Virus record (IMG/VR): IMGVR_UViG_3300047333_000105
Coordinates: 1 to 46,501 of that record
Reading direction: 5' to 3' (one strand)
Length of the DNA stretch: 46,501 nucleotides
Source of the DNA: a virus
Part shown: piece by piece, positions 883 to 45,035 of the stretch
How positions within the stretch are numbered: position 1 is the stretch's first letter
How the letters are laid out: each line of letters begins with the position of its first letter
Translations under genes and position numbers: made by a program
The notes under the pieces: model-generated
What the model saw: only the letters and a program-made list of their open reading frames with translations
Told to the model about the DNA's origin: nothing
Database searches by the model: none

Positions 883-911
883 ACAAAAACCCCGGCGGTT
901 TCCCGCCAGGG
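883..911 (-). terminator. Intrinsic terminator after CDS 941..1123
   Basis: The minus strand reads CCCTGGCGG-gaaa-CCGCCGGGG followed by TTTTTG: a GC-rich stem (891-898 paired with 903-911) plus a U-tract (plus-strand A-run 884-889). Confidence 0.6.
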
Positions 912-940
912 CATGTAATGTCATATCGTACCAGAATCCT

Positions 941-1364: not shown

Positions 1365-2051
1365 TTAGGCAGCAGCCTTTTCGGGTTGAGCCGGGCTGAT
1401 ATCCGGCTTTGCAACCGGGTCGATCATTTCATCGGTTTCAGTCTGTTTCATATTGGCTTCATCTTCGCTCCGCTCAGGAGCATTACGAGTGAGGCGTTCA
1501 TTCTCCAAGTATGCCTCGATCTTGAAGTCTGGCAGGTCGACGCCACGGATATGGGTTGCAAACATGCGAGCAGCCAAGACGTCCGATTGGGCAACCTCTT
1601 TCTTTTCGATAGCTACGTCGATACGCTTCGCGAACGAGCGATACATTTCAATAAGTTTCGAAAGATCGAGGGGTTGCTTGTCCTCTGTTTTCTTGTCGCC
1701 ATGGAGGTGCCAAGGGTTCTTGGAAGCCTCATCGATACGGAAACCACGTTCCGCCACCTTGCCAGACTTGTTGAGTTTGCCGGGCCAATCCGTTTCGTTT
1801 TTGACGACGATAGGGGAATAGGCACCGAACCAAGAAACAAGCTGCGCTCTCTGTTGAGTCCGCTTTTCCGTTGCCGGGATCGCAAAGACAAGGGTTTGGG
1901 CGAGTGTTACGTCGCCATGCTCACGGGCATGATACATACAAGCAATTGCAGTATCTTGGACGAGATTGAGCCAAGCCGCTGCATTGGTTGCAATGGTCTT
2001 GATATTGGTTTTGACTTCATCTTTTGACAGAAATGCAATGGACTTAGACAT
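1365..2051 (-). CDS. Hypothetical early protein (228 aa, acidic C-terminus); first sizeable gene of the early arm
   Basis: The track ORF is 1365..2141. I prefer the ATG at 2051 (MSKSIAFLSKDEV...) with AAGGA 8-9 nt upstream. No family recognised. Carries an internally deleted copy of the 40-bp repeat at 1463-1482. Confidence 0.75.
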   Translation of the reverse strand: MSKSIAFLSKDEVKTNIKTIATNAAAWLNLVQDTAIACMYHAREHGDVTLAQTLVFAIPATEKRTQQRAQLVSWFGAYSPIVVKNETDWPGKLNKSGKVAERGFRIDEASKNPWHLHGDKKTEDKQPLDLSKLIEMYRSFAKRIDVAIEKKEVAQSDVLAARMFATHIRGVDLPDFKIEAYLENERLTRNAPERSEDEANMKQTETDEMIDPVAKPDISPAQPEKAAA

Positions 2052-2685
2052 GATATATTCCTTTACATACAAGACACTACTCGTTCCGAGTGAAACGAGG
2101 TCTCCGGCTTGCGCCAAAGGTGACGAGGATGCAGGGACCATATCAATTCTGACCTAACGATAATCCGCTCTTAAGGAGCTTGTCTCCGTTAGGATTGAGA
2201 TACGATGTTGACGATGTCAAAGAACACGATAGCTTTATTGCTATCTGATCCACGGTGACTTACGGGCAAAACTCTCCCATATGCCGCTACGCATACTTTT
2301 GAGCGTGCCCAGCCTAACAAAGTTAGGGCCGGAACCAATCCCATACCTGCCAGCCTGATATTGAAGCCCTTCCGAGAACACCTTAGCCCTAGAGCCTTAG
2401 CTATCCCGTACCGAACCCCTACAAACCTTCTGCAAGCGGGTAACTGTTATCGGTCGCGACACCTATCCGACCAAGCGGCACTTAAGGTTTCCAGAGCCCC
2501 TAACCATTTAAGGTTTCAGGATGGCAGTGCTAGTTTGGGGATTGAAGCCCTTCACCTGAAACAGGTAATGCAAAGGCCGTGCCAATTGCTCCTTCACCAC
2601 AAACCCTAGCAGGCAAGGATCGTACGGAATGGCAGAAACGCTAAGGAATGCGAGGGGAATTGCGAGAGAGATTGATCCCAGGTGG

Positions 2686-2702
2686 ATGTAACATTGTATC
2701 AT
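2686..2702. promoter_or_regulatory. 17-bp imperfect palindrome ATGTAACATTGTATCAT, copy 1 (operator-like)
   Basis: Exact 17-mer also present at 2887-2903. Half-sites are ATGTAACA and TGTATCAT (12 of 17 positions symmetric). Preceded by CCAGGTG (2678-2684). Confidence 0.5.
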
Positions 2703-2886
2703 AGCAAGGTCAAATCGAGCAATGTTGTAAGCAATTCCGACACCAATACTGCCCTAATCGTACAAGAATGGCAGGAATGAGCCAATCTCTGCTGTAAAGA
2801 AACCCGACACTCTGTCTGAGGTATCTCTCCTAAGTCATTGATATCATTGGATGCAGGCTTGATAAGATATCCGACACTCTCTCGTC

Positions 2887-2903
2887 ATGTAACATTGTAT
2901 CAT
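2887..2903. promoter_or_regulatory. 17-bp imperfect palindrome ATGTAACATTGTATCAT, copy 2
   Basis: Exact repeat of 2686-2702. Followed by CACCTGG (2905-2911), the inverse complement of the heptamer that precedes copy 1. Confidence 0.5.
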
Positions 2904-2953
2904 GCACCTGGTTCGCAGCACCAGACAGAGAGGATCACCACTTGGAAGGGCTC

Positions 2954-3175
2954 ATGCTCAGGTCATCAGGTGGACTGGCTCATGTCATAGCAGGTCATCA
3001 CCATCACCATCACCATCACCATCACCATCACCATCACCATCACCATCGTCATCACCATCACCATCACCATCACCATCGTCATATCATACAAGAACAGACA
3101 GAGTACAAACAAGAGGCAAACCGAGGGCAGACTGGGCACAGGCTTGGGGTCGAGAGGGGGGTGGGGGAGGGGTAA
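2954..3175 (+). CDS. Possible histidine-rich peptide (73 aa: H17-R-H9-R-H core)
   Basis: ATG at 2954 preceded by GGAAGGG 4 nt upstream. This is the only ORF in the 1.6-kb control region with any ribosome-binding signal. The reading frame cannot be proven because the repeat is open in several frames. Confidence 0.3.
   Translation: MLRSSGGLAHVIAGHHHHHHHHHHHHHHHHHRHHHHHHHHHRHIIQEQTEYKQEANRGQTGHRLGVERGVGEG
2996..3083. repeat. (CATCAC)n hexanucleotide tandem repeat, about 14.5 units with two CGT variants
   Basis: Read directly: catcaccatcaccatcac...catcgtcatcaccat...catcgtcat. Confidence 0.95.
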
Positions 3176-3481
3176 AGTAGGGCCCTCTGAACCACGTTAT
3201 CAGTCGGGGTCATACGAGATTTCAAAATTTAGAAAAAATTGATATATCGATATTTGCCATTCTAAGGCACCCTACAGCGTCGATAGCAATAAAAGGACTA
3301 CAGATAAGGGTCTACCCCATCGATAGGCCTTCCTGGGCTTCCTAGGGCGTTTTAGAGGGTATTCAAGAAGTGGGCTCCCTCTGGTCGCCCCAATCCTCAC
3401 CAGACTCTGTCTTAAGACTCGTACACAAAGTTGAAAGAAGGTTCTCTCCCGTTCTCCCTCGCGCTAATCTTGTTAGAGAAT

Positions 3482-3556
3482 ATTGTTATAGTATATTGTT
3501 TATATAATAATTATTAAATATATTATTTTATAAATATATTATATATTATATACTAT
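3482..3556 (+). repeat. AT-rich segment sharing two blocks with 41978-42010 (ATTGTT(T)ATAGTATATTGTTTAT and ATTATATACTAT), split here by a ~40-bp pure A/T insert
   Basis: attgttatagtatattgtttat at 3482-3503 and attatatactat at 3545-3556. The same blocks are contiguous at 41978-42010. Confidence 0.8.
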
Positions 3557-3570
3557 ACCTTAATCTTTAT

Positions 3571-3599
3571 ATGATAACACAGAAACGGGTTTTTGTCAA
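3571..3599 (-). promoter_or_regulatory. Sigma70-type promoter P6, outermost promoter of the early (minus) arm
   Basis: The minus strand reads TTGACA (3599-3594), a 17-nt spacer and TATCAT (3576-3571). It faces away from P1 and fires into the AT-rich segment. Confidence 0.55.
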
Positions 3600-3697
3600 G
3601 AACTTTTTTCATAAAAATAAATAAAAAATAATTCCTTTAATAATTAAACACTTAACTCTTTGTACGAAACTTTCTTCTTTTCCATGTACGATTTCTC

Positions 3698-3726
3698 TTG
3701 ACAAAATAGTAAAAATGTGGTATAAT
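3698..3726 (+). promoter_or_regulatory. Consensus sigma70 promoter P1 with extended -10, start of the late (plus) arm
   Basis: TTGACA (3698-3703), a 17-nt spacer ending in tgtgg, then TATAAT (3721-3726). The leader ...tagagtaaga... resembles that of P5. Confidence 0.8.
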
Positions 3727-3756
3727 ATGTGTATAGAGTAAGAGAAACTCTTTTAA

Positions 3757-4269
3757 GTGATTCGAAACGGAATGGATGAAACAAAAATTGTTAATAAAAC
3801 GATAGGCGAGAAAATATCCGATTCAGTCGCCAAGCATGTCGGGTCATGGCGATTTGTAATCCTACAATCATCACTTCTTTTTGTATGGCTCTTCTACAAC
3901 TCTGTCACCACCGGAGCGTGGGACCCCTACCCCTTCATTCTTCTAAATCTGGTCCTGTCATTCCAAGCCGCCTACACAGCCCCTCTCATCATGATGAGTC
4001 AGAACAGGCAGGCAGAAATCGACAGAAAAGTTCTCTTCGGTGATTTCGAGGTAGACCAGAAAGCTCATGTCCTCATCACTGAAATCCACCGTACTCTTCA
4101 TCAAGGGATGACAAACAATGGCCTCGACAATGAAACCGGTACGCAAGGAGCTTGCTCCGAGTTACAAGACGGCAATGAAGAAAGATATTCTTCAGGACAA
4201 GAAGAAGGGGATCAAGCAGAACTCTCCTCTAGACAAGAAGCTAGACGCCAAGGTCAAGGCCCGCTTTAA
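3757..4269 (+). CDS. DUF1003-family membrane protein
   Basis: GSWRFV, two hydrophobic helices, DPYPFILLNLVLS, MMSQNRQAEIDR and EIHRTLHQ match the DUF1003 pattern as I remember it. The start may be GTG 3757 or ATG 3772. The C-terminal 50 aa is low complexity. Confidence 0.7.
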   Translation: MIRNGMDETKIVNKTIGEKISDSVAKHVGSWRFVILQSSLLFVWLFYNSVTTGAWDPYPFILLNLVLSFQAAYTAPLIMMSQNRQAEIDRKVLFGDFEVDQKAHVLITEIHRTLHQGMTNNGLDNETGTQGACSELQDGNEERYSSGQEEGDQAELSSRQEARRQGQGPL

Positions 4270-27567: not shown

Positions 27568-27590
27568 GGAAAACGGGGATCAAGTCCCCG
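27568..27590 (-). terminator. Hairpin plus U-tract spanning the stop codon of the HD gene (attenuator-like)
   Basis: The minus strand reads CGGGGA-cttga-TCCCCG followed by TTTTCC. Confidence 0.4.
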
Positions 27591-28188
27591 CCATAGCCGC
27601 CTCACCCTGCGACGATCCTTGTTCTCGTACTTGTTCATTCCGTTCATTTGTACGGCCTTCTGTCAACTCTTTGTATCGCTCAAGGAAGAGAGTCTCAGCC
27701 ACAGATGGAGAGAATCCCACAGGCTTAACGCTACGAACAGCACGTAGGTTAGTATGCCATAGATCATCTTTGCCAGGAGCGATATGCTGTCGCTCTGCAT
27801 GGTACATCCTCTTATCTGCCTGATGGACTTCGAGGGAGTGCAACTTCCACGGGCTGAGATTGAAGCGACGAGCAATGCTAGACATGGCTGCATCTTCTAG
27901 TGTCCTATATTCCGGCAGAAGTTTCTTCAGAGGTGAGGAAACGTCCCCAAGAAAAGCTTCGGCGGCGTCATGGAAGAGACCTTCAAGAGCGAACTTCTTC
28001 GGCACCGCCAGAGAAACAAGGACAGAATGCTCAGCAACAGAATAGAAACGATTGACATGACCAGTGTATCTACAAAGATTAGATAGAGCATGAGCAATGG
28101 TAGCAACAGTATATACCGAACTATCAGGATCAAGAAAGTCAAAGTACTCTCCGTCGTACACAGAGATGCATGAAGGAGTTTGTTCCAT
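27580..28188 (-). CDS. HD-domain phosphohydrolase (YfbR/5'-deoxynucleotidase-like)
   Basis: H...HD...D signature: YSVAEHSVLVS and LFHDAAEAFLGDV. Confidence 0.8.
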   Translation of the reverse strand: MEQTPSCISVYDGEYFDFLDPDSSVYTVATIAHALSNLCRYTGHVNRFYSVAEHSVLVSLAVPKKFALEGLFHDAAEAFLGDVSSPLKKLLPEYRTLEDAAMSSIARRFNLSPWKLHSLEVHQADKRMYHAERQHIAPGKDDLWHTNLRAVRSVKPVGFSPSVAETLFLERYKELTEGRTNERNEQVREQGSSQGEAAMAGT

Positions 28189-28337
28189 CAGTCTTCTCCG
28201 TCTAGCAAACTATCAGGATCGTGATCTCTCCACCACTGGTCACAAGAGAAACAGTCTCCTCCTGTAGAGTAGTATTCTTCTTGATCGATAGTCTTACCAC
28301 AAGTCTCACACCACCGTTCTTCTTCAAAGTCGTGCAT
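28188..28337 (-). CDS. Small zinc-ribbon protein (49 aa, below the ORF-track cutoff)
   Basis: Hand translation gives MHDFEEERWCETCGKTIDQEEYYSTGGDCFSCDQWWRDHDPDSLLDGED (CxxC...CxxC). TGATG overlaps at both ends indicate translational coupling. Confidence 0.6.
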   Translation of the reverse strand: MHDFEEERWCETCGKTIDQEEYYSTGGDCFSCDQWWRDHDPDSLLDGED

Positions 28338-28882
28338 CACTGATCTCCGTTAGCAGTAGCGTGTAGGTTCTTTTCGCGGAGGAGAAACTCTAGACGCGCG
28401 AGGGCGTTCCATGCCGCGTGAGCTGCGTGAAGGATTCCCGAATCATTATCCCAAGGACCTTTCTCTGACTCGGCGACAAGGTGACGAACCATCGCATCAC
28501 TATATCGTTCAAACCCTTCGGGTACTGTGGACCATCCCTTCCAGGAATATTTAGTTGCTCCAAAAGTTGAAACAGTAGCAACCGCCCGCAGTGCTCCGGG
28601 GAAGTAGTCAACGGCTCCTCGCCAGAGGCAGGGCTTACCTGCGTCAAGTTTCGCACCACCGGACTTGGGATCGATTCCGGATGGGTCTCTCTCTCCGCTC
28701 CTAAGGAGCTTGTCTCCATCTCCTTTGTAGGAGGTTGGTTCTGAAAGATAGGGCTGGCACTTCTCGGTCCCGGACCCGATGGCTTTGCTTTGTACGCCAT
28801 TATTCTTCACCTTGTCCAGATACATACCCACTCCCGACAAATACTTCTGTGCTTCTAATTGGTGTGTCTGTTCCGTCTTCAT
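28337..28882 (-). CDS. DUF5664-type nucleotide pyrophosphohydrolase domain protein (dATP/dGTP diphosphohydrolase N-terminal-like)
   Basis: KLDAGKP...ALRAVATVSTFGATKYSWKGW...YSDAMVRHL...DNDSGILHAAHAAWNALARLEF matches the K.D.GK / fGa.KY / RHl / SG..H.aH pattern of this family. ATG 28882 has AGGAGG 8 nt upstream (the track start TTG 28939 is unlikely). Confidence 0.65.
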   Translation of the reverse strand: MKTEQTHQLEAQKYLSGVGMYLDKVKNNGVQSKAIGSGTEKCQPYLSEPTSYKGDGDKLLRSGERDPSGIDPKSGGAKLDAGKPCLWRGAVDYFPGALRAVATVSTFGATKYSWKGWSTVPEGFERYSDAMVRHLVAESEKGPWDNDSGILHAAHAAWNALARLEFLLREKNLHATANGDQ

Positions 28883-28950
28883 GATAGTATACCTCCTGAT
28901 CATTTCCCAGCCAGAAATAGAACTTGGACGGGTCAACAAAATCCATTTCT

Positions 28951-36921: not shown

Positions 36922-37123
36922 GGTAAATATTAATAGGTTGCTCATCTTTTTCAAGGATGCCTTCCTTTTCAAGGGCATAGGTAACTTCATCCTCGTCAAG
37001 AGGGTCTGAAAAAACCTCCGCGATTGCGATCAGACAGGTAGGACAAGGGTCCCAGTCTTTGTGTTCGTTGTTGTACGAGACTTGTTCTCCTGTGAGAACA
37101 TGAGAGCAAATGTAACACTGCAT
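36905..37123 (-). CDS. Zinc-ribbon protein (72 aa)
   Basis: CYIC...CPTC. The start overlaps the ATP-grasp stop (TGATG). Confidence 0.65.
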   Translation of the reverse strand: MQCYICSHVLTGEQVSYNNEHKDWDPCPTCLIAIAEVFSDPLDEDEVTYALEKEGILEKDEQPINIYLDKSD

Positions 37124-37959
37124 CAGATAAATCCTTTAAAGAAATTGGCATAGTCAGTGACAGTCTTGCCAGTCAGACCAGGGGCTGTGTTAATCTCTAG
37201 AGCAAGAGCTTGCCCTCCAGTTGTGACGACAACGTCGACTGCGCCAAAGTCGAGACCCGTTGCTTCCAGACATCGCAATGCCACTTTCCGAGCTGAAGGT
37301 GGTACACTAATTCCTTCTCGTTGGAAAATGAATCCGTTGTCATGGCTTCGGATACGCCAGTCAGTTGGTTCTGTTCCATGCTTTGCTACCTTCTGTTGTT
37401 CTGAGATGACTGTGAATACATAGTCAGGATCGGGATTTCCTATGACGTCGATATCTGTTTGAGGCATATACCTCTTGCCGACATGGATACGAAATTCTTT
37501 CTTCTTCTTCATATACCGTACGTAGAGAGGGGCATCGACGAGATCATCAGGAGTGTCAGCGATAACGATACCTTCCCCTGAGTGGCCGTTGAGAACCGTA
37601 CGACAGACGATTGGATAAGCTCCTGCCGGAATGTACTCCTTGTCAGTCCAGAAATCAGGAACGAGATTGTCTTCGATCTCCAGGCTGACAGTAAACTCCT
37701 TCATGAGTTGAAAGAATTTAAGCTTGTCGACTGCTTCTCTCACTTTGAGCGGACTGTTGAGAATTTTGACAGACACTCCTTCCGGTGCCGTGATGTTATG
37801 CAAAGAATGAAACTCAGAAGAACCCCAATTGATTACGACGGAGTCCTCCTTGATCTTCCACTTCGAATCTACAAGACGAAGAGCTTTGACATCAAGGGCT
37901 TCGCAGAGAGCTTTGACACTCTTGCTTCCGGTTTTGTAAGGGAGAATTTTAACGGACAT
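37123..37959 (-). CDS. ATP-grasp ligase (RimK-like)
   Basis: PIVCRTVLNGHSGEGIVI, KKEFRIHV and LDFGAVDVVV...ALEINTAPGL (the E-x-N Mg/ATP motif). Confidence 0.85.
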   Translation of the reverse strand: MSVKILPYKTGSKSVKALCEALDVKALRLVDSKWKIKEDSVVINWGSSEFHSLHNITAPEGVSVKILNSPLKVREAVDKLKFFQLMKEFTVSLEIEDNLVPDFWTDKEYIPAGAYPIVCRTVLNGHSGEGIVIADTPDDLVDAPLYVRYMKKKKEFRIHVGKRYMPQTDIDVIGNPDPDYVFTVISEQQKVAKHGTEPTDWRIRSHDNGFIFQREGISVPPSARKVALRCLEATGLDFGAVDVVVTTGGQALALEINTAPGLTGKTVTDYANFFKGFI

Positions 37960-37961
37960 GA

Positions 37962-39065
37962 TTAATCCTCGTCTGGGTCATAGTTCGACGTAGTCGGGTA
38001 TTCTTCTGAAATGTCTGGAATAGAAAACCAACCATTGGCTTGAACAGTTGCAGGAGGTTGAGCCGAAAGAGGCGGGTAGACAGGTACATTAACCAGAAGA
38101 GAATGCAACTCTGCCTCTGTCATTCCATAAGCCGAAGCTACATTTCCCAATTTCTTCTTCGGGCGACCGAAAGGATCATCCTGATTTACAACGGGGACAA
38201 AAACAGACCAGTCCCGACAGAAACAGATGTCCTGTGCCATACGGATGCCTTCGTACAGAGAGGCAGAGATTTGGTCGTCGTTCCAGTCTATACCCTCACG
38301 GACGATATCATAGGTATCTCCGAGAATATTCCGCATGAAGAAGAGAGGACCACCGTACGAGAATGAGTTGCAAACTTCCCGAGGATCGGGGAACTGCTCA
38401 GAGAACTCATAGAGACGACGATTGATAGCCACCCAGTCAAGAATAAGCTGAGGATCAGTGGCACCACGAAGGTAACGATTTTCGAGAGAACCGAACTTCG
38501 CCAGAGCTTGGATATTAAGACCTGCGTAATGGAGACCTTCGTGGAGGGTTGTATCTCCATCTTTTTGGATAAACCTCTTCAGGGTTTGTACGATATTGGG
38601 GGCGTCCTTGGCACGAAGACAGAAAAGATTACCTACGCGATGATCACCGGCCCATTCAGAGAGGATTTCTTCGAGAGCGAACCACATCGCCGTAAACGAG
38701 GCAAGACGGTTGACATTCCAGAGACCAACATTGAGATGGACGTGAACAGAAGTCCTGTTCGACTCATCCAATTCGGTTCCAAAATCCTTGAATATAGTCC
38801 ACAAGCTCTTGAGGGCTTCAGGAACTTCATCGAACAAGATAGGATTGGAGAGGACATATTCGGCGTTATCTTCGCCACGGAGAGAATGATCTTCATGATA
38901 TGACCAGTAAGGTTCGAGCTTGGGCCCACTCTTGTAGAACTTGTTGCCCTCGCATTCGATCTCCAGTCCGATATCACCGAAGACCTTCCCTTTACCCATC
39001 AGGTTTCTGATCTCTTCGCCGTACACTTTCTCTTTCAGTGTAGGTATAAAAACTGGATGAGCCAT
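37962..39065 (-). CDS. Amidoligase (GS-like COOH-NH2 ligase, Amidoligase_2-type), paralogue 1
   Basis: GLEIECEG, NRTSVHVHLN and GSLENRYLRG follow the G-x-E-x-E / S-x-H-x-H / E-x-R pattern of this family. ATG 39065 overlaps the upstream stop (TGATG). Confidence 0.6.
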   Translation of the reverse strand: MAHPVFIPTLKEKVYGEEIRNLMGKGKVFGDIGLEIECEGNKFYKSGPKLEPYWSYHEDHSLRGEDNAEYVLSNPILFDEVPEALKSLWTIFKDFGTELDESNRTSVHVHLNVGLWNVNRLASFTAMWFALEEILSEWAGDHRVGNLFCLRAKDAPNIVQTLKRFIQKDGDTTLHEGLHYAGLNIQALAKFGSLENRYLRGATDPQLILDWVAINRRLYEFSEQFPDPREVCNSFSYGGPLFFMRNILGDTYDIVREGIDWNDDQISASLYEGIRMAQDICFCRDWSVFVPVVNQDDPFGRPKKKLGNVASAYGMTEAELHSLLVNVPVYPPLSAQPPATVQANGWFSIPDISEEYPTTSNYDPDED

Positions 39066-39820
39066 CAAACAATCCTTCCAAAATATTCAGTTGCTGCAAT
39101 GACTTCAGTAAGATACTTGAAGTCGTCGCCAAGTTTCAGCAAAGTCTTGTCACATTGAGGAAAAACACCTACGACATCCCCCTTATAGGCAAGGAAGAGC
39201 ATCCCAATAGGTCCTCGAACAAGTGCCAACTTTCTGTCAAAAGCTACACCCCGGTTGGAGATTTCGGGATTGTTCAGAGCTTCGAAAGTCTCATCGATAG
39301 TAGGATAGTTACCCAAGATAGTGTCTGCCAACTCGTTTGACAAGAGTCCAACCTGACGATCTCGATAGGTATTCCCTCCGAGACAAACAGGAATCTGTGA
39401 GAGACTCTGGCTATTCAGTCCCTGCTCTGTACGACGAGTAGGGGCCCTTTCTACATAGACACACCTACCGTCGATGTTCACAAAACCGAGAGGAAATGGC
39501 CGGAACTTATTGAAATGAGGAGAATTCATCTGTTTCCTGATGACCTTCGAATGAGGTTTCATACCAAGGTATTCGTCACAAAGAGGTCCAACGGAAGGGT
39601 TATCTCCGCTGTTCTTCGAGATGCCGTCGAAAGGGGAGAAACGCTGCTCACTCACTTTGGCATCACAGAGAGGTTCCATATACACCCTAAAGATGTTGTC
39701 ACCCATGTGGTTGGCTACAGCAAGGACGTGGTAGGGGTGTCCGTCGTAGAGAATGACGGTACCCTTGATCCTCTTGTTTGCCTCAGGAAGAGACTCATAG
39801 AAGTTGGGATATTTAGCCAT
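39065..39820 (-). CDS. Uncharacterised protein (251 aa) embedded between the two amidoligase paralogues
   Basis: Intact ORF overlapping both neighbours by 1-8 nt. No motif recognised. Confidence 0.7.
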   Translation of the reverse strand: MAKYPNFYESLPEANKRIKGTVILYDGHPYHVLAVANHMGDNIFRVYMEPLCDAKVSEQRFSPFDGISKNSGDNPSVGPLCDEYLGMKPHSKVIRKQMNSPHFNKFRPFPLGFVNIDGRCVYVERAPTRRTEQGLNSQSLSQIPVCLGGNTYRDRQVGLLSNELADTILGNYPTIDETFEALNNPEISNRGVAFDRKLALVRGPIGMLFLAYKGDVVGVFPQCDKTLLKLGDDFKYLTEVIAATEYFGRIV

Positions 39821-40814
39821 GATAACCTTCCTTCACGATAGTTTTCAAAGGATAATTCCGACCGTACTCAAAATCCTGGTCGCGGCGAGAAGAGTTGATA
39901 GACTTACAGAGGAGTCTGTTGGCATCACTACCACATTTCTCCGGCAAGTAGAGAACCGACATATCCCAGATGGCTTGGTTCATTCGATCCCAGACAGCTC
40001 TACGAAGAGGTTTGTTCGTCAACCAAAAGTTGGACAGAACACGATACTCGACGCCATAGCTTTTGTATCGACATGCCCCTGCCTGGCCGTACAGGGAACG
40101 ACGGATGTTGTTCTTGTCGTTCAAAAGAGACCAGTAGCCGAGATACCAGTCGAGTTGCTTCACAAGGTCGGAGCAATGGTTGAGATGATCGATATCCTTC
40201 GAGAGATCGACATCTTGAGTCCAGCCGATATGGAGATGACCACTCGCTGTACGGACACGTTCGAGATCACCAATAGGTTTCGGGGAAGGATTCTGCTCAT
40301 TCGTCCAGCCGTTGAAGTCGGGATTACATCCAAGGACCTTAGCAGCAGGAGGGATACGTTCCCATTCCTCGATGTCATACTTGACAGAAGGTACGGCAGA
40401 AAGTTTGTAACCTTTTGGCAAGAAGGTTAGAAGACTTTTCATAACTTGGGTGATGTTGCGGTCGAAGTCTTCGAAGTTATCGACGGGATCGATGTTGAAT
40501 TCGGCGGCAGTGCCGTCAACTTGGATAGCTCCGTAGGGAACCTTGTAAGGCTCGTCCTTCGTTCCAGGCAACAGATCGTGTGCAGATACGACACGACCTT
40601 CGGTGTTGAGAACAAACAACTCTGGATCACACCCAAACGTGAATCCCGGCAGTGGTTTGATTGGAGCTTTCACGACGTAGACCTTTCTTGTAAAGAGGTT
40701 AGATATGGTTGAGAAGGGATTGGATGGCTTGAGGAAGGATAGGCAATTCAGGCATGATGAGACGATTCTGTCGGGGATCGACTGAACACTCAGGACAGAG
40801 GATGAGGTCGTCAT
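39813..40814 (-). CDS. Amidoligase-like protein, paralogue 2
   Basis: FGCDPELF, RTASGHLHIG and YGVEYRVLS align with the three motifs of paralogue 1. ATG 40814 would overlap the GATase gene by 116 nt. An alternative GTG at 40673, with AGAAAGG upstream, gives 286 aa and no overlap. Confidence 0.55.
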   Translation of the reverse strand: MTTSSSVLSVQSIPDRIVSSCLNCLSFLKPSNPFSTISNLFTRKVYVVKAPIKPLPGFTFGCDPELFVLNTEGRVVSAHDLLPGTKDEPYKVPYGAIQVDGTAAEFNIDPVDNFEDFDRNITQVMKSLLTFLPKGYKLSAVPSVKYDIEEWERIPPAAKVLGCNPDFNGWTNEQNPSPKPIGDLERVRTASGHLHIGWTQDVDLSKDIDHLNHCSDLVKQLDWYLGYWSLLNDKNNIRRSLYGQAGACRYKSYGVEYRVLSNFWLTNKPLRRAVWDRMNQAIWDMSVLYLPEKCGSDANRLLCKSINSSRRDQDFEYGRNYPLKTIVKEGYHG

Positions 40815-41862
40815 GGTTCGCTACTGTAACCCCGATAGTATCGACAGTAATATCAGCATTACACCAAGAACAACCATAACTAGCCAGCTCTGCGAACCGG
40901 TCGAGGGAGAGATGTCCTGCGAAAGGATCGTCCTTGTCCGCAACGAGGTTGATGAACTGTACCCCTGTGCTGGTGCTACCAGTCGAGCCAAGGGTTGTCG
41001 ATGAGTTCTTGTTCTGTGTACTCCCCGAGTGCCCTGTGGTGGTACCATGGTGATGAAAAGGGGTAGTCCCGGTGCTGTAGTGAGTTACAGCCGGGGTAGG
41101 CTCCTTTCCCTTGAGTTGACCTTTCTTGGCGTAGGCAAGAGGATAATCCATATCCGCCTTGTCGCGGAGCTTGTTGAGATCGAAGGTGTACAACTCGTCG
41201 ATATCGGTGGCGAAGTAGGTATACCCTTCCGCCGACTGAGCCATGTCATACTTCGACGTCGACAAACCGATTGCAGCCTGTATCATAGGCCACTCCGACG
41301 CCCACATCACCTGCTGGTGGTTTTTCGAGACTGCCGTCCAAAAAGACCGCTCCTTGTTGCGGAGGAAGTTGACGGTATTCTCGTTTTTGTCGTACCAGAC
41401 AAGGGCCCAGGCTCCTTGGAGGAGAGGGATTGTCTTGTGTACGCCAAACCGAGCGATATGGGTGAAGATAGCAAGGGAATCGACATCAAATTTTTCTCCG
41501 AGTTCGTCTTCCAACTCCATATGAGACAAGATGGAGAGAGTTCCGTTGTGGGCACCGATGATGTGATCCACTACGAAAGGATGGGCGTTGTTGGCGTTGA
41601 CCTTGCCCTTCGTCGCTGCCCGGTTGTGACCGATGAAGACAGAGCTTGCCGTACCCGAGAGGGCGGTGTCAAACTTCTTGCTGTCGAACAGGTCGAGAGG
41701 ATGACTGGCAATCTTGACGACATGGGTATCTTTCGTGGCATGTCGAACTGCCGCAAAGCCGGTCGAGTCCGTGCCTCGGAAGTAGTCATAGAGCATGAGA
41801 CGCTTCATTGTCGCCTCGTCGCGGTGTTCTAACACACCCATAAGTCCCACGAGCCCACACAT
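40699..41862 (-). CDS. Class II (Ntn) glutamine amidotransferase-like enzyme with a low-complexity linker and C-terminal Cys4 ribbon
   Basis: The N-terminus MCGLVGLMG carries the Cys2 nucleophile; FRGTDSTGFA is also present. The linker is TPFHHHGTTTGHSGSTQNKNSSTTLGSTGSTSTG and the C-terminus contains CSWC...CPEC. AAAGGA SD. Confidence 0.8.
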   Translation of the reverse strand: MCGLVGLMGVLEHRDEATMKRLMLYDYFRGTDSTGFAAVRHATKDTHVVKIASHPLDLFDSKKFDTALSGTASSVFIGHNRAATKGKVNANNAHPFVVDHIIGAHNGTLSILSHMELEDELGEKFDVDSLAIFTHIARFGVHKTIPLLQGAWALVWYDKNENTVNFLRNKERSFWTAVSKNHQQVMWASEWPMIQAAIGLSTSKYDMAQSAEGYTYFATDIDELYTFDLNKLRDKADMDYPLAYAKKGQLKGKEPTPAVTHYSTGTTPFHHHGTTTGHSGSTQNKNSSTTLGSTGSTSTGVQFINLVADKDDPFAGHLSLDRFAELASYGCSWCNADITVDTIGVTVANHDDLILCPECSVDPRQNRLIMPELPILPQAIQSLLNHI

Positions 41863-41913
41863 TATAGAATTCCTTTCAAATTCAAAAGGTTATGAAATAG
41901 TTAAAAATAAAGC

Positions 41914-41942
41914 TTGACAAAAAGCCAAAAGTGTGGTATAAT
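41914..41942 (+). promoter_or_regulatory. Consensus sigma70 promoter P2 on the plus strand, inside the minus-strand arm (orphan, antisense-facing)
   Basis: TTGACA (41914-41919), a 17-nt spacer ending in tgtgg, then TATAAT (41937-41942). Its leader atccgtacaggatgaggagagg is almost identical to those of P3 and P4. Confidence 0.75.
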
Positions 41943-41977
41943 ATCCGTACAGGATGAGGAGAGGTGATGGTAAGTTT

Positions 41978-42049
41978 ATTGTTTATAGTATATTGTTTAT
42001 TATATACTATCTAACAATAGGGCCTATCAAGATTATCTAACAATAGGGC
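41978..42049 (+). repeat. AT-rich block homologous to 3482-3556, followed by two exact 16-bp direct repeats (iteron-like)
   Basis: attgtttatagtatattgtttattatatactat (41978-42010). TATCTAACAATAGGGC occurs at 42008-42023 and 42034-42049. The whole block is bracketed by the 9-bp inverted repeat GATGGTAAG (41966-41974) / CTTACCATC (42061-42069). Confidence 0.85.
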
Positions 42050-42080
42050 GATCTGCCCACCTTACCATCTCTTGTACGAA

Positions 42081-42962
42081 TCATACTTCCTGTGTTGGGA
42101 CCTTCTCGGCTTGTTCCTTCATGAATCTCTCCATGACATACTCGGCCTTGAGACGGCGATTCTTGCCCGAGAGTTCGAGATCGGAGTTCAGTTCGACGTA
42201 GTCATAGATGAGATCAAGACACCACTTCGTGTACTCTCCGTAGCCACGGTACTCAGGATGTCCTTGTACGCCCAGACAGCATGTGTCACGGATGAAATAG
42301 GCTTCGACGTCCTGATGACCTCCAGTGGACTTCATATGGTCGTTATACCACCTGTTCTTCGATTGGTGGCCATGGGCGATGACATCCATACCCGGACCTG
42401 GAATGACCATCTGGTGGTGTACGGAAGAGACGGCATTGATATAACGCTTGTTCTTTCGGTCGAACATTCCGTGGGGTTGGTTGTGACCGTCGACGTCCTG
42501 ATAGAGCTTGAAGCCATTCATCACTGCAAGGAACTGGGCACCACGGCAGACGCCAAACATTGGGATACCGAGAGTCTTGCAGATATTGAAGAGACGGATG
42601 TCTTGGATGTCACGCTCTTCGTCGTGTACGGTCGTTGAATGAGGCATCTCTCCGTACAGGGCAGGATCGACGTCTGCACCGCCTGCGAAGACGACCAGAT
42701 CAGCTTCTTCAGGAGTCTTGGCGTTGTAACACCGGGCCCGAGAGAACATCTCGGCGAACTGTTTCTTCTCAAAAGGGGAGCCTGTGAGGTATACTGACAG
42801 CCACAGCTCCGGCATCTCCAGCACCGAGTCTTTTTGTAGGACTACTTTGTGTTGTCCTAGCAGGAGGGGTGGAGAACCATTTGGTGTAATGGTATTCGTC
42901 CCAGCATCTTTCTGCATCGACATATTCCTGATCCTTTTTTGTCTTCTGGATTGTTTTGACAT
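42081..42962 (-). CDS. Class I glutamine amidotransferase / peptidase C26 (gamma-glutamyl hydrolase, PuuD-like)
   Basis: VVFAGGADVDPALYG, GIPMFGVCRGAQFLAV (nucleophile Cys), VHHQ and GVQGHPEY (His/Glu). The likely start is ATG 42923, with AAGGA 9 nt upstream. Confidence 0.85.
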   Translation of the reverse strand: MSKQSRRQKRIRNMSMQKDAGTNTITPNGSPPLLLGQHKVVLQKDSVLEMPELWLSVYLTGSPFEKKQFAEMFSRARCYNAKTPEEADLVVFAGGADVDPALYGEMPHSTTVHDEERDIQDIRLFNICKTLGIPMFGVCRGAQFLAVMNGFKLYQDVDGHNQPHGMFDRKNKRYINAVSSVHHQMVIPGPGMDVIAHGHQSKNRWYNDHMKSTGGHQDVEAYFIRDTCCLGVQGHPEYRGYGEYTKWCLDLIYDYVELNSDLELSGKNRRLKAEYVMERFMKEQAEKVPTQEV

Positions 42963-43083
42963 CCATGTGATCCACTTCAGATAATACGACCTCCGTCATA
43001 AGGGCGAAGGCCTCGTCGTGATAGCCCCACTCCTTTAGCCCGATGGCACGATAAAGTTTGAACTCGTTGAGGGCATTTCTCAT
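42769..43083 (-). CDS. Hypothetical protein (up to 104 aa); its 3' half overlaps the C26 gene out of frame
   Basis: The N-terminal ~55 aa look protein-like (MRNALNEFKLYRAIGLKEWGYHDEAFALMTEVV...). The rest overlaps the better-supported C26 frame by at least 155 nt. Confidence 0.4.
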   Translation of the reverse strand: MRNALNEFKLYRAIGLKEWGYHDEAFALMTEVVLSEVDHMDVKTIQKTKKDQEYVDAERCWDEYHYTKWFSTPPARTTQSSPTKRLGAGDAGAVAVSIPHRLPF

Positions 43084-43095
43084 ATCCTTCTTTCC

Positions 43096-43785
43096 TTATG
43101 CCGGTTCGGTTACGGCCTTGGCTGCGAAAGGGTTGGAAGCTGCCTTGGCCTCGGCAGGGACGTGACCCTTGATCTCCGACTCGCCGTAAATCTTCGTCTT
43201 GCGGGAATGCCAGATTTCGTGAGGAGTCATCGTCGGCTCAGGAATCTTCAGCCATGCTACAGGAGGTGTGAAAGGATCAGCGACGGCTGCATTCGAGATA
43301 TTCCGAAAAAGGGCAAAGATGTGGTTCTTGTGAGGTCTCGTCTCTCCTTTGACAGGTTCTTCCGGGACAGTTTTGTCAGTGTAGACGGAATTTCCTACCG
43401 TACGAAGGAATTCGAAGCCTTCGGCCTTGAGAATTTTCAGCCACTCCTTTCCGTTCCGATCCGACATCTGACTGTCAGAAAAGACGGCAAAGAAGGTATG
43501 ATCGGGCATATCACTTGTCCCGAAAGTACCAATACGTATGAAATTCTCGAAGACTTCACGGTTGGTCTTGCCAAGATAGGCAAATTCCGACTTGCCGTTG
43601 ACAGTCACAGTCAGGGCCTGATCGTTCTTGCCGTCACGGTCGCCGTGGTAGAGTTGGACGGAGGCAGGTGCATCAGGGTCGTTCACAAAACCCTGAATGA
43701 TATCGACGGCACAACAGCCGATACCTTCACCGCCATGCTGTGAGCCGAAACGCAGGAACTCGATCTTGCTTGCAGAATATGCCAT
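43096..43785 (-). CDS. Uncharacterised protein (229 aa) with an H-x-G-x(n)-CC-x-(I/V)-x-x-I-x-GF N-terminal motif; paralogue of 44171..44596
   Basis: FGSQHGGEGIGCCAVDIIQGF. ATG 43785 overlaps the upstream stop (TGATG) and has AGGAG 9 nt upstream. Confidence 0.7.
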   Translation of the reverse strand: MAYSASKIEFLRFGSQHGGEGIGCCAVDIIQGFVNDPDAPASVQLYHGDRDGKNDQALTVTVNGKSEFAYLGKTNREVFENFIRIGTFGTSDMPDHTFFAVFSDSQMSDRNGKEWLKILKAEGFEFLRTVGNSVYTDKTVPEEPVKGETRPHKNHIFALFRNISNAAVADPFTPPVAWLKIPEPTMTPHEIWHSRKTKIYGESEIKGHVPAEAKAASNPFAAKAVTEPA

Positions 43786-44150
43786 CACTTCTTCTCCTCG
43801 TTGGTTTGCTTAACAAGCCATGCGTTGAGAGCTGCCACAGCCTTGGACGCCGTAGGTGTCTTTGCTAAGTCTTGTCCAACATCAATAGCCGCCATGGCGT
43901 AGACTGTATTCTTCGAAGGAATCACAGACGACAAAAGGTTGACAACAAGGGCGAAAGGAATCAGGAAGTATCCTACTTTACGCCAGATTCTCCAGCGCTT
44001 TTCTTCTTCTTCGTCTTCTGCCAACATGGCAATGAATGTAAGGCACCACCCTATAGAAGAGACACAACAGATACCAGAGAGAAAGTTAAGCTCCCCCTGT
44101 ACGTTTCCACAAACGTCGGCAAGATAGAGCATGAGTTTAAGATGGTTCAT
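43785..44150 (-). CDS. Integral membrane protein (121 aa, about 3 TM)
   Basis: Three hydrophobic segments. GGAGGA SD 4 nt upstream of the ATG. Confidence 0.7.
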   Translation of the reverse strand: MNHLKLMLYLADVCGNVQGELNFLSGICCVSSIGWCLTFIAMLAEDEEEEKRWRIWRKVGYFLIPFALVVNLLSSVIPSKNTVYAMAAIDVGQDLAKTPTASKAVAALNAWLVKQTNEEKK

Positions 44151-44170
44151 TTATTCCTCCATGTTTGTTG

Positions 44171-44596
44171 TTAGTCGTCAGGGTCGTAGTCGTATTCCAT
44201 GTTGAGATGATAGATACGACAGATGTTGTAGGAGTTGCTATTCCTAACCTCGTTGACCTGGAGAAAACCTCTCTCCAGAAGCCTCTTTTCGTTGACGACA
44301 ATCTGGTCCCAGTCTCCTTCATAATCACGTGCTAGGACAGCCTCTACGATGCCTCCAGGACGCTCTGCCTTGATGTAGGCAAGGAACCTGTCCAGACGAG
44401 CCTCTACGGTCTCCGCAGGGGCTGAGAGAGTGAAGAAAGAGAGATAGGACCGAACCTCTGACCCGCAGGAGTCTTCGTCGTCGAATTCTGGTTGCTCCTC
44501 CAGCTCAGGCTCCATCACCTTATGAGGATAAGACGGAAAGCCGAAGATGTGTTTGATGCCGCAGCACATACCGTTATGACAGGAAATTCTAAGCAT
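44171..44596 (-). CDS. Uncharacterised protein (141 aa) with the same CC motif; paralogue of 43096..43785
   Basis: MLRISCHNGMCCGIKHIFGF. ATG 44596 has AAGGAG 7 nt upstream (the track start 44650 lies inside the repeat element). Confidence 0.7.
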   Translation of the reverse strand: MLRISCHNGMCCGIKHIFGFPSYPHKVMEPELEEQPEFDDEDSCGSEVRSYLSFFTLSAPAETVEARLDRFLAYIKAERPGGIVEAVLARDYEGDWDQIVVNEKRLLERGFLQVNEVRNSNSYNICRIYHLNMEYDYDPDD

Positions 44597-45035
44597 AGCT
44601 CTTCTCCTTTTCCTTTTCTTGTCGATTTTGCTCCGAGCGGTGCAAAGCACCTAAGGTGCGGAGCGAGGTATACTCCAGCCAATCAGAACCGTGGATCAGT
44701 TTTGAGATATCAGGCTTCTCATGGAATTCATAGATGAAGCCATCGAGTCCGTCGATATTGACGAGATGCCGTACATAGAAGGAATGACCGGGGGCGTCAG
44801 GAATGAAGCCTTCGTAGTCATCCAGACGAGCAAGGCCGTCGTCATCCACCTGAATGACGTCACAGAGGATTGAGTAGCCATCGGGTTCGAGACGCAAGGC
44901 CGGGAACCATCCCATGTCGTACAGGAAGCCTTGTACTTGGACTTGACGACCTGTGTCATGGATGAAATTCATCCAGTGCTGGCGCTCTTCTCGTTTTCGG
45001 AGGGTGCCGTAGGCGAAGACGTTGAGGATTGCCAT
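44589..45035 (-). CDS. AIG2-like gamma-glutamyl cyclotransferase (GGCT/GGACT family)
   Basis: FAYGTLRKRE, GFLYDMGWFPAL and LARLDDYEGF match the YGTL...LD.YE pattern. The last ~25 codons are supplied by repeat copy C. Confidence 0.8.
   Translation of the reverse strand: MAILNVFAYGTLRKREERQHWMNFIHDTGRQVQVQGFLYDMGWFPALRLEPDGYSILCDVIQVDDDGLARLDDYEGFIPDAPGHSFYVRHLVNIDGLDGFIYEFHEKPDISKLIHGSDWLEYTSLRTLGALHRSEQNRQEKEKEKSYA
44629..44668 (-). repeat. Copy C of the ~40-bp structured repeat (reverse orientation), inside the 3' end of the GGCT ORF
   Basis: tgctccgagcggtgcaaagcacctaaggtgcggagcgagg. It has one deletion and one mismatch relative to copy D. Confidence 0.9.

Follow-up and report, generated by a model that had tools for sequence, protein, structure and literature searches.

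A control region in an environmental phage genome that combines a structured RNA with a predicted sigma-54 promoter and PEP-CTERM-box-like sites

The gene-free gap between the promoter P6 and the first leftward gene of this phage genome (2142-3570 in the window, by which we mean the whole 46,501-nt stretch that was analysed) is composite: it is the control region of the first leftward transcription unit, with one genuine structured RNA of ~345 nt. We consider it likely that a host PrsR/sigma-54-dependent promoter drives this novel structured leader or non-coding RNA together with a three-gene operon. The remaining ~1 kb of the gap is regulatory DNA (enhancer sites, an IHF-like site and a conserved block) plus a strain-specific microsatellite. 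A long non-coding phage gap can be mainly enhancer DNA instead of RNA. The initial annotation had proposed, should P6 be active, a single RNA of ~1.5 kb starting there. This was borne out in part: a conserved structured RNA is present, but it takes up only ~345 nt (about 2558-2214), lies ~1 kb from P6 and has a predicted sigma-54 promoter of its own.

Make-up of the gap

The distance from P6 to the ATG of the first leftward gene is 1164-1520 nt (~1.2-1.5 kb) in every relative spanning the gap. The P6-proximal part holds the following features.

3571-3599, minus strand: sigma-70 promoter P6, TTGACA-17-TATCAT, TG-extended, 11/12 matches
3372-3390, minus strand: hairpin GGGCGACC-N3-GGGAGCCC, 122-214 nt after P6; arms invariant, loop variable
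3154-3390, unstranded: block A, sequence kept even in the most distant relatives
2996-3077, unstranded: (CATCAC)x13.7 microsatellite, specific to the genome studied

The gap had been described as hairpin-dense. All six stems and three direct repeats listed for it were found within 1 nt of the positions given, and the estimate of about 50% GC for 2160-2900 compares with a measured 48%. The density of structure applies to one part only: folding exceeds that of shuffled sequence at 2214-2557 (z = -3.09), whereas 2586-3563 on the minus strand folds at shuffle level (z = +0.41). No ORF of more than 92 aa lies in 2142-3570. The initial annotation had seen no minus-strand ORF with a ribosome-binding site; the only start in the gap with a Shine-Dalgarno match and at least 50 codons is in the poly-His frame of the microsatellite, and this frame is absent from the relatives. 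Short coding ORFs would speak against a non-coding RNA; the gap is without any conserved ORF. Substitutions in the conserved core relative to four relatives show no 3-base periodicity (e.g., 6/6/6 and 31/36/30) and core indels are mostly non-multiples of three, in contrast to the adjacent gene, with its third-position excess (68 vs 10 and 11) and indels in multiples of three. By these evolutionary criteria the gap is non-coding.

P6 itself was borne out, and its -35 and -10 elements are kept in 7/7 relatives covering the promoter. The hairpin at 3372-3390 folds at -11 kcal/mol, with a z of only -1.35. Since a U-rich tail comes after it in 4/7 relatives, it might stop transcription from P6; P6 transcripts could also read through, making the sigma-54 promoter partly redundant. 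Block A gave neither a covariation nor a folding signal, and ends in an invariant CCCTACTTTACCCCTCCCCC tract, which makes the transcript C-rich at this point and gives the plus strand a run of G-quadruplex type. The microsatellite is missing in L046, L047 and L002, and the Logan contig L045 ends within it. Assemblies frequently break in the gap region, and the IMG/VR contigs of the clade end inside the gap. An AT-rich tract at 3480-3560 is absent from half of the relatives.

The structured RNA and the genes downstream

The elements of the RNA and of the stretch that follows it are, in the direction of transcription:

about 2558-2214, minus strand: structured RNA of ~345 nt, recognized by covariation, folding and G.U bias
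2445-2558, minus strand: variable 5' hairpin region of the RNA, 45-215 nt in relatives
2337-2444, minus strand: 5' domain, a long irregular hairpin closed by ACCC/GGG
2246-2347, minus strand: 3' domain, a three-way junction with P1 = UGGUUCCGG/CCG-U-GGAUCA
2214-2245, minus strand: terminator-like terminal hairpin (2228-2245) and conserved tail GUGUUCUUUGACAU, marking the end of the conserved RNA
2153-2204, minus strand: lineage-specific hairpin insert, located at an insertion hot spot
2052-2152, minus strand: proximal leader with conserved TGATATGGTCCCTGCA (2127-2152) and CCTTTGGCGC (2106-2120), then an AAAGGA ribosome-binding site
1365-2051, minus strand: first gene of the predicted sigma-54 unit, 228 aa, phrog_1448
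889-912, minus strand: strong intrinsic terminator-like hairpin, 10 pairs (8 G-C), then TTTTGTCGTG

The start of the RNA near 2558 is predicted from the -12 element, and its end is likewise a predicted one. The closing GGG of the 5' domain belongs to a conserved AUGGGAU. In the 3' domain, two hairpins lie within P1: Hc (2313-2327) and Ha, the latter built of three helices, with a conserved UAGC loop, a bulged GG and GUAAG at its junction.

Comparison of relatives, which the initial annotation had named as a check along with folding energy, gave covariation support spanning 70 base pairs, drawn from 4 to 7 distinct sequences and, for alignment A4, from an alignment fitted to the model. Across the 36 pairs of the 3' domain helices and the 2228-2245 hairpin, 88% are paired as compared with 29-44% when the partners are slid, and 18/36 pairs change on both sides (1-4 when slid); for the 34 pairs of the 5' domain, 92% of cells are paired (31-64% when slid) and 9/34 change on both sides (0-4 in the slid controls). 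The long-range P1 and the multi-helix junction are retained with different sequences in L047 and L069. In the 3' domain helices and the 2228-2245 hairpin, G.U combinations exceed A.C by 33 to 4, which places the structured RNA on the minus strand, the strand that had been proposed. Folding energy points to the same strand: the minus strand of 2214-2557 reaches -129.5 kcal/mol, with 0/100 shuffles as good (z as given above), against z = -1.45 for the plus strand. Conservation, as identity to L046, is higher in the RNA core (92%) than in the gene next to it (87%). With compensatory changes, G.U bias, stability and no coding signal, this is a structured non-coding RNA by generic criteria.

The terminal hairpin directly follows P1; it comprises just 6 pairs, its U-tract is modest, and its z ranges from -2.1 to -3.3. 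Its stem is wholly different in five relatives yet always paired (GATAGC, CGTAAC, ACTAAC, ATCAGG and CTAGGG). The window and L046 have a second GAUAGC, in the 5' domain, and with it an alternative pairing that L065, L047 and L069 do not keep; no conserved alternative (anti-terminator) pairing was found among the relatives compared.

At the insertion point (2153-2204) L046 and L047 have nothing and the hairpin of L065 is shorter; in L061-63 and L070 the place is taken by a cassette of ~276 nt that contains inverted repeats and an ORF of 63 aa. No sigma-70-like promoter was found between the RNA and the ATG of the 228-aa gene, which would therefore need read-through from upstream. Its product matches a PHROG whose function is unknown and has no Pfam domain, only chance-level matches in a PDB sequence search (E above 0.1) and a low-confidence AlphaFold model (mean pLDDT 52). 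The hairpin at 889-912 probably ends the three-gene unit.

The initial annotation had named GOLLD, ROOL, HEARO and introns as families against which to compare the gap, and no similarity to any of these was found. Rfam 15, whose models also include riboswitches, tmRNA, RNase P, 6S and EAR, gave no match at gathering score over the whole window and chance-level matches only (E above 2) in a permissive search (E up to 10) of 1900-3800; four relatives searched with E up to 1 gave none. ARAGORN found no tRNA or tmRNA. A covariance model built from the RNA (R1) finds only the phage clade of the window, and a degenerate pattern of the RNA core had 0 matches in IMG/VR. By these comparisons the RNA is, as a predicted family, undescribed and without an Rfam match. 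As with GOLLD and ROOL, it is a multi-helix RNA of a phage, but it is much smaller (263-468 nt), stands in a defined promoter context and is so far confined to one small phage clade. The glmY and glmZ promoters of the Enterobacteriaceae have three GlrR sites (TGTC-N10-GACA), IHF sites and a sigma-54 promoter ahead of a small RNA. The gap resembles them in its several NtrC-type activator sites with IHF, its sigma-54 promoter and a structured non-coding RNA ending in a hairpin, and differs in the site sequence and the activator, in having no Rfam similarity to GlmY/GlmZ and in being followed by protein genes of the same orientation. Two kinds of promoter-proximal RNA that act in cis on elongation, put in phage HK022 and the EAR element in eps operons, measure 70-120 nt. 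They share with the present RNA their place as conserved structured RNAs that open a transcription unit (phage or exopolysaccharide-linked), before terminators; however, the core here is ~240 nt and has another fold. Since no Rfam family matched, none of the families held there for elongation-modifying RNAs did.

The predicted sigma-54 promoter and the PEP-CTERM-box-like sites

Upstream of the RNA, we find a set of predicted control elements.

2860-2876, minus strand: candidate enhancer site 1, TGTCGGATATCTTATCA, a degenerate PEP-CTERM-box copy 67 bp upstream of site 2
2831-2843, minus strand: IHF-consensus site TATCAATGACTTA (WATCAANNNNTTR), a match to the consensus
2793-2809, minus strand: candidate enhancer site 2, TGTCGGGTTTCTTTACA, from an exact-pattern scan of the window
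2726-2742, minus strand: candidate enhancer site 3, TGTCGGAATTGCTTACA; the sigma-54 promoter begins 141 nt downstream
2569-2584, minus strand: predicted sigma-54 (-24/-12) promoter TGGCACGGCCTTTGCA, exact TGGCACG-N4-TTGCA

The promoter carries the GG and GC doublets one helical turn apart within TGGCACG-N4-TTGCW, and is the only match to TGGCACG-N4-TTGCA, an exact one, in the 46.5-kb window, with ~0.01 exact matches expected by our own calculation. It is kept in all seven relatives covering the site (L046, L047, L061-63, L065 and L069), among which the N positions and the flanks diverge and the GG/GC core is conserved. The 18-mer TTGGCACGGCCNTTGCAT had been considered as an RNA motif; this was rejected, and the 18-mer assigned to the sigma-54 promoter, because 13/13 of its matches in an IMG/VR scan lack further similarity. 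A sigma-70 promoter from the TTGACA in TCTTTGACAT was also rejected, there being no -10 element at a constant distance. The sigma-54 holoenzyme is unable to open DNA alone, and its promoters stay off unless a specific activator is at hand, so that placing a phage operon behind one would wire it to a particular host signalling pathway.

The candidate activator sites are dyad-like 17-nt elements that follow TGTCGG-N5-YTTACA and lie 67 bp apart, three in the window with site 1 degenerate; together with the WATCAANNNNTTR site they are found 141-310 nt upstream of the sigma-54 promoter. By chance, 0.06 exact matches would be expected in the window; it holds 2, which share one strand and both fall in the gap, and its 17-nt sites fit TGTCGGNNTNNYTTACA. 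In relatives, 2-3 sites recur at a matching register of 65-68 bp, and all have the IHF-consensus site, which varies only at its N positions (TGAC, TCAC, TGAG and GCAC); AATCAATGACTTA follows the 17-nt sites in unrelated phages too. A CRISPR-like array was considered for the 66-bp repeats and rejected, since the 'spacers' are conserved between phages. Signs of an enhancer-binding protein encoded by the phage itself were looked for and not found: all frames of the window lack GAFTGA and Walker A signatures, the related loci showed no signature either, and the corresponding domain was absent from 29 proteins scanned.

These sites match a motif known from bacteria, the 'PEP-CTERM box', to which the enhancer-binding protein PrsR is predicted to bind. 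The account of Haft et al. 2006 (PMC1569441) describes, as motif 1, a 17-nt element with the 3' end TTTACA, sometimes repeated, which precedes proteobacterial PEP-CTERM genes upstream of a sigma-54 site with a spacer of 32-92 nt (mean 63), and whose phylogenetic profile matches PrsR, PrsK and PrsT. The RpoN dependence of a PEP-CTERM gene has been demonstrated by experiment (PMC9850573). We scanned public collections with a two-site pattern that is blind to promoters and genes, for which we calculate ~0.01 chance matches over 596 Gb of genome sequence. The bacterial loci found in metagenome-assembled genomes (MAGs) have the sites, then a -24/-12 promoter. In L081, L085 and L080/L082 (two copies in one MAG), these precede a gene with a TIGR02595 match above the cut-off, whose product ends in a VPEP...PEP-CTERM signal; in the MAG locus L084 sites and promoter are present and the protein runs off the locus. 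At L085, a gene 1.8 kb away scores 617 bits against TIGR02915 (PrsR; cut-off 503). Two further matches, L083 (Acidimicrobiales) and L089 (a tRNA), were judged to be chance or repeat-driven.

Phage contigs without detectable similarity in the stretches compared also carry the sites before sigma-54-like promoters. In the four phage groups examined (the clade of the window, L077, L073 and L088) the sites point to a -24/-12 element 50-150 bp downstream, and in L077 the module adjoins the large-terminase gene in a similar divergent layout; BLAST of the L077 module against GenBank phages gave no match. The last site stands 141 nt from the promoter in the window, 130-152 nt in L046, L065 and L069, 64 nt in L047, and about 65 and 51 nt in L077 and L073 as counted from sequence.

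The likeness to the PEP-CTERM box as there described lies in a long intergenic region with a repeated 17-nt site, ending in (T/C)TTACA, ahead of a canonical -24/-12 promoter. The spacer of the window and of most members is longer than the maximum of 92 nt in that account, the phage sites alternate with IHF-consensus sites at a register of 66-67 bp, and the leader is 393-569 nt in the phage clade against a mean of 71 nt given for PEP-CTERM genes. It should also be noted that the module here sits in a phage genome and would drive phage genes without a PEP-CTERM signal. The 228-aa product of the first downstream gene has no PEP-CTERM tail, so the phage copy would be a co-opted cis-element outside the gene set of the host regulon. 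We therefore regard the 17-nt sites as putative PEP-CTERM boxes, their identity with motif 1, as that account gives it, resting on length, 3' end and genomic association; the activator predicted from these binding sites is most probably PrsR, the NtrC-type response regulator of PrsK/PrsR. In the literature searched we found no description of such a phage module.

Proposed mechanism and rival explanations

In the mechanism that we favour, host RNA polymerase with sigma-54 would rest on the perfect -24/-12 promoter at 2584-2569, and a host NtrC-type enhancer-binding protein, most probably PrsR, would occupy the three 17-nt sites at 2876-2726, PrsK/PrsR being the system that governs PEP-CTERM/exosortase surface proteins. 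An IHF-type bend at 2843-2831 would aid the activator in reaching the polymerase, and ATP hydrolysis would lead to initiation near 2558. The transcript would fold first, into the variable 5' hairpin, the long 5' hairpin domain, the three-way junction and the hairpin with its U-rich tail at 2245-2214; polymerase passing this hairpin would yield a message for the 228-aa, 56-aa and 62-aa genes, down to the terminator at 912-889. Most likely the RNA acts in cis, as a promoter-proximal leader setting the share of transcripts that continue past the terminal hairpin, which is the least secure step, and a stable ~345-nt RNA would be a by-product or second product. We infer the identity of the activator, the RNA ends, the read-through of the hairpin and the function of the RNA from sequence.

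The structured element might instead be a gene of its own, for an RNA that acts in trans (as a regulatory sRNA or by binding protein) and ends at its own terminator, the downstream genes being expressed by leakage only, an explanation that we find doubtful but worth keeping in mind. Tolerated insertions of up to 276 nt between RNA and gene also fit it, including an ORF cassette directly after the RNA, and so do the flanking of the conserved core by variable sequence on either side, a core conservation above that of the adjacent gene, the covarying hairpin and following UUCUUUG at the RNA end, and an array of activator sites, IHF site, sigma-54 promoter and RNA that recalls the E. coli glmY promoter; yet the element keeps a constant orientation directly before the same gene with no promoter between, its terminal hairpin is weak, and no target or partner is known. 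It is quite improbable that the conserved hairpins are terminators or DNA-level palindromes only, with the fold an artefact of conservation among close relatives. The independent sequences are few, several helices are invariant and alignment A4 was fitted to the model, but both-sided changes in 18/36 and 9/34 pairs stand against 0-4 when slid, L047 and L069 retain P1 and the junction although their sequences differ, and an excess of G.U over A.C is unexpected for DNA palindromes.

We give little credence to one ~1.5-kb untranslated RNA from P6, with the whole gap as a large ornate non-coding RNA or leader. P6 is strong, conserved and oriented leftward, with no intervening ORF and no efficient terminator proven between it and the gene, but 2586-3563 folds at shuffle level, most of this part either lacks conservation (the 120-215 nt next to P6 and the microsatellite) or shows it without covariation, a conserved sigma-54 promoter with its enhancer lies in mid-gap, and the conserved hairpin at 3390-3372 and the C-rich tract could halt P6 transcripts. 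Equally hard to credit is a role of the 17-nt repeats and IHF-like sites in DNA packaging or replication (cosB-like or iterons) rather than as a transcriptional enhancer. The cosB of phage lambda likewise combines R sites with the IHF site I1, and repeated protein-binding-type sites with IHF-like sites in a gene-free region ~1.6 kb from terS, a nearby AT-rich tract (3480-3560) and the frequent assembly breaks would suit such a role; against it, bacterial chromosomes carry the two-site pattern ahead of sigma-54 promoters and PEP-CTERM genes, the sites are oriented toward a -24/-12 element 50-150 bp downstream in 4/4 phage groups, and half of the relatives lack the AT-rich tract.

Returning to the PrsR/sigma-54-dependent promoter, we suggest, as a tentative idea, that virulent-looking environmental phages copied a host PEP-CTERM/exosortase enhancer and sigma-54 promoter, such that an early operon fires only with active PrsK/PrsR (an exopolysaccharide, floc or biofilm state), and that the clade added a new ~240-nt RNA domain with a function of its own (a sensor or riboswitch, an antitermination element modifying RNA polymerase, or a protein sponge), giving a two-input switch. 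If true, this would be a new kind of phage host-state sensing and a handle on the still unknown PrsK stimulus. If the activator is PrsR, the phages would read the host's decision to build exopolysaccharide and a PEP-CTERM surface layer, and the predicted host would be a PrsR-positive proteobacterium from peat or sediment. Peat and bog samples are the source of the contigs. The covariation of the RNA is good for its size and, with a defined promoter, it is directly testable.

BLAST of GenBank phages with the gap sequence gave no match, a search of 185,579 species genomes with the 228-aa family for a prophage or host found no relative, and the module is absent from the stretches of two deposited genomes (a Desulfofustis phage and an uncultured spring phage). 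By large terminase, the nearest cultured or deposited phages are Brevundimonas and Desulfofustis phages, at ~50% identity.

Layout of the gap between the two arms

The phage genome is complete, circularly permuted and about 46.4 kb long, with window bases 1-125 repeating 46377-46501. The gap studied is the divergent stretch separating a rightward from a leftward arm.

Features of the gap and of the adjoining arms
from 3757: rightward arm, with a DUF1003 gene, terS, terL, a P22-type portal and structural genes
2051 through the circular junction to ~24.4 kb: leftward arm, first small early genes, then genes for metabolism and replication (among them primase-helicase, PolA, RNR and an amidoligase/GATase cluster)
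3390-3372, minus strand: invariant hairpin GGGCGACC-N3-GGGAGCCC; four of seven relatives have a U-rich tail after it
2876-2860, 2809-2793, 2742-2726: imperfect palindrome of 17 nt, TGTCGG-N5-YTTACA, occurring three times, once every 67 bp, upstream of a sigma-54 promoter
2843-2831: IHF-consensus site; ATCAA-N4-TTA is kept in relatives, with changes at N positions only
from ~2558 (predicted start): variable hairpin region of 45-215 nt, ahead of the conserved core
2444-2337, minus strand: RNA 5' domain, a long irregular hairpin whose ACCC closes with the GGG of a conserved AUGGGAU
2347-2246, minus strand: RNA 3' domain, a three-way junction in which P1 encloses hairpin Hc and a three-helix hairpin, Ha
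2228-2245: terminal hairpin 3' of the three-way junction, followed by the conserved tail UUCUUUGACAU

The initial annotation described this gap as non-coding and rich in stems. Its stems and repeats were all found, at positions within 1 nt, the longest ORF is at most 92 aa, and relatives spanning the gap (ENA L046; Logan L047 and L069; JGI L061-L063 and L065) are also gene-free there, with 1164-1520 nt between the promoter P6 and the ATG. Within the conserved core, substitutions lack codon periodicity and most indels have lengths not divisible by three, whereas the adjoining gene carries both coding signatures. With stems present, no long ORF, the gap kept and no coding signature, the observation is confirmed. 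Structural density holds for one part only: folding exceeds expectation on the minus strand of 2214-2557 (z = -3.09; complement, -1.45), but not in 2586-3563 (z = +0.41).

P6 was rightly taken for a promoter, its sequence being near-consensus sigma-70. The 122-214 nt after it are not conserved (AT-rich in the window, purine-rich in other relatives); beyond the hairpin at 3390-3372 lies block A. Its sequence conservation extends to the most distant relative, without covariation, and the block ends 3' in CCCTACTTTACCCCTCCCCC and a C-rich tract. We infer that this hairpin and the rut-like tract would stop P6 transcripts; a single 1.5-kb RNA, as originally proposed, is unlikely.

On the plus strand, 3154-3182 holds a G-quadruplex-type run (GGGGGG-T-GGGGG-A-GGGG-TAAAGTA-GGG), whose minus-strand counterpart CCCTACTTTACCCCTCCCCC is nearly invariant across all seven relatives (one substitution, in L069); the unrelated phage contig L077 has G-runs at the equivalent place on the opposite strand. 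A (CATCAC)x13.7 microsatellite (2996-3077) is specific to this genome, L046 having only ATCACATCAC; the repeat gives rise to a plus-strand poly-His ORF of 77 aa, which starts with TTG at 2942 and has a Shine-Dalgarno match, and Logan contig L045 ends within the array. Three sigma-70 promoters elsewhere, at 3698-3726 (plus), 45811-45783 (minus) and 41914-41942 (plus), have a TG extension and a perfect 12-of-12 consensus; directly after the one at 45811 comes a hairpin of 13 bp with a T-run, comparable to P6 and its conserved hairpin.

A sigma-54 promoter with probable enhancer sites

Alignment of the relatives revealed an 18-mer, TTGGCACGGCCTTTGCAT, invariant save one position between divergent flanks. 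Scanning IMG/VR with it returned only loci without any other similarity, its sequence being that of the canonical -24/-12 promoter, TGGCACG-N4-TTGCW. Promoters of the sigma-54 type are well established, and their holoenzyme requires an AAA+ enhancer-binding protein; the -24/-12 motif has a sole, exact match in the window, directed toward the first early gene. Exact 17-nt sites occur twice in the window against 0.06 expected, and relatives carry two or three site units in matching register. These repeats are unlikely to serve in packaging or as an origin.

Public collections were scanned with a two-site pattern that held no promoter or gene information. Among species genomes it found six loci, against ~0.01 chance matches calculated, and at four of them the sites are followed by a -24/-12 promoter and then a gene, in that order. 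These four are from MAGs of Rhodospirillales, Desulfarculales and an unclassified alphaproteobacterium (two copies); their gene products have a C-terminal VPEP, next a hydrophobic segment and finally a basic tail, and all three products scanned matched TIGR02595 above cut-off. The fifth locus (Syntrophobacteraceae) has the sites and a sigma-54-like promoter, its protein extending past the locus end. The sixth (Acidimicrobiales), a tandem repeat without promoter, was treated as chance.

These bacterial loci agree with PEP-CTERM motif 1, compared by its description rather than its logo: 17 nt with 3' end TTTACA, sometimes repeated, ~63 nt ahead of a sigma-54 site (Haft et al. 2006, PMC1569441). 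Motif 1 lies upstream of proteobacterial PEP-CTERM genes and has the phylogenetic profile of PrsR, PrsK and PrsT (PMC1569441); for one PEP-CTERM gene, RpoN dependence was demonstrated experimentally (PMC9850573). The cis-element is thus already known in bacteria. From sequence, the promoter-enhancer reading is well supported and very probably correct, and motif identity and genomic association make PrsR a reasonably likely activator. No AAA+ enhancer-binding protein gene was found in the window or related loci.

In IMG/VR the two-site pattern also finds contigs without tblastx similarity to the window over the stretches compared. In L077 (also L074, L076 and L078) there are three sites, each followed by AATCAATGACTTA, then CTGGCACAGTCCCTGCT and a short leader; the L077 module adjoins a large-terminase gene in a divergent layout similar to that of the window. 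The sites are followed by TGGCATGCTTAGTGCT in L073 and L075 and by TGGCACCGGAGATGCA in L088. Sites with sigma-54-like promoters in dissimilar phage contigs show that the module recurs in several phage lineages; it is rare among IMG/VR contigs.

An exact, near-palindromic 17-mer, ATGTAACATTGTATCAT, flanks the enhancer array at 2686-2702 and 2887-2903, 201 bp apart, its promoter-proximal copy being inverted in L046; the pair may be operators for some protein. The sigma-54 promoter of L077, CTGGCACAGTCCCTGCT, has a lookalike at 2127-2152: a conserved element, TGATATGGTCCCTGCA, about as far from the start codon but without the essential GG. This element may be what is left of an earlier promoter closer to the gene, and it can also fold as a small hairpin with G.U pairs. 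The alphaproteobacterial MAG with two copies of PEP-CTERM gene and enhancer (L080, L082) has a ~34-bp tandem repeat between sites and promoter, with two copies at one locus and four at the other.

A structured RNA ahead of the first early gene

Judged from the -12 element, the RNA would begin at about 2558. In its 5' domain (34 pairs), 92% are paired against 31-64% in slid-partner controls, and both partners have changed in nine pairs against 0-4. Over the 3' domain plus terminal hairpin (36 pairs) the values are 88% against 29-44% and 18 pairs against 1-4, and none of 500 shuffles matched the observed covariation score or percentage paired. Hc is the annotated stem at 2313-2327, and Ha is marked by a conserved UAGC loop, GG bulge and GUAAG junction; the stem at 2228-2245 always keeps its pairing though its sequence is completely different in five relatives. 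The covariation set comprises 4 to 7 distinct sequences, all of one clade, and core identity to L046 is 92% against 87% for the neighbouring gene; an artefact of sequence conservation is unlikely, and the fold is well supported. G.U pairs outnumber A.C pairs by 33 to 4, and therefore the RNA is the minus strand. Model R1 of the RNA matches this clade alone among all loci searched with it; no Rfam family matched, and a degenerate core pattern found no match in IMG/VR.

An insertion hot spot lies immediately 3' of TCTTTGACATYGTTAA, right after the RNA, holding in the window a 51-nt hairpin (2204-2153) that contains the annotated stem at 2162-2196, and in L061-L063 and L070 a ~276-nt cassette with 22-bp terminal inverted repeats and a 63-aa ORF (MRKEYVIKLSGY...). 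We favour a leader that acts in cis and controls how transcription passes its terminal hairpin, since the first early gene would have no other promoter: the stretch from the RNA to that gene's ATG at 2051 holds none of sigma-70 type. Sharp core boundaries and tolerance of insertions right after the core speak for a separate trans-acting RNA of ~345 nt, a serious rival though a distinctly less probable one than the cis-acting leader. Transcription of the three-gene unit probably ends at a strong terminator-like hairpin (912-889). Apparently new are the RNA family and, in several phage lineages, a sigma-54 promoter and this cis-element heading a phage operon; a literature search of incomplete coverage found no earlier report of either, which is absence of evidence only.

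The cassette, at ~3090-3370 in L061-L063 and ~190-470 in L070, is bounded by TTAA at each junction and resembles a miniature mobile element or a moron.

Other features of the genome

A TGACCC hexamer array at 46297-46415 (also 1-41) has ~20 copies and a 36-nt super-period, within a 57-aa minus-strand ORF (46291-46464) whose predicted product has SG/SR/SW repeats. At 27580-28939, a PF18909 dATP/dGTP diphosphohydrolase domain adjoins a YfbR-like HD phosphohydrolase, a MazZ/DatZ-like pair; in other phages this accompanies adenine replacement. The 37123-45035 cluster (amidoligase, phiEco32-type COOH-NH2 ligase, two glutamine amidotransferases, RimK-like ATP-grasp and GGACT cyclotransferase) resembles a module that modifies peptides or metabolites. 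An intergenic repeat, GCACCTTAGGTGC-TTT-GCRCC, occurs three times in the small-gene early region (~418-450, 540-576 and 45652-45685), its central arm able to pair with either flank.
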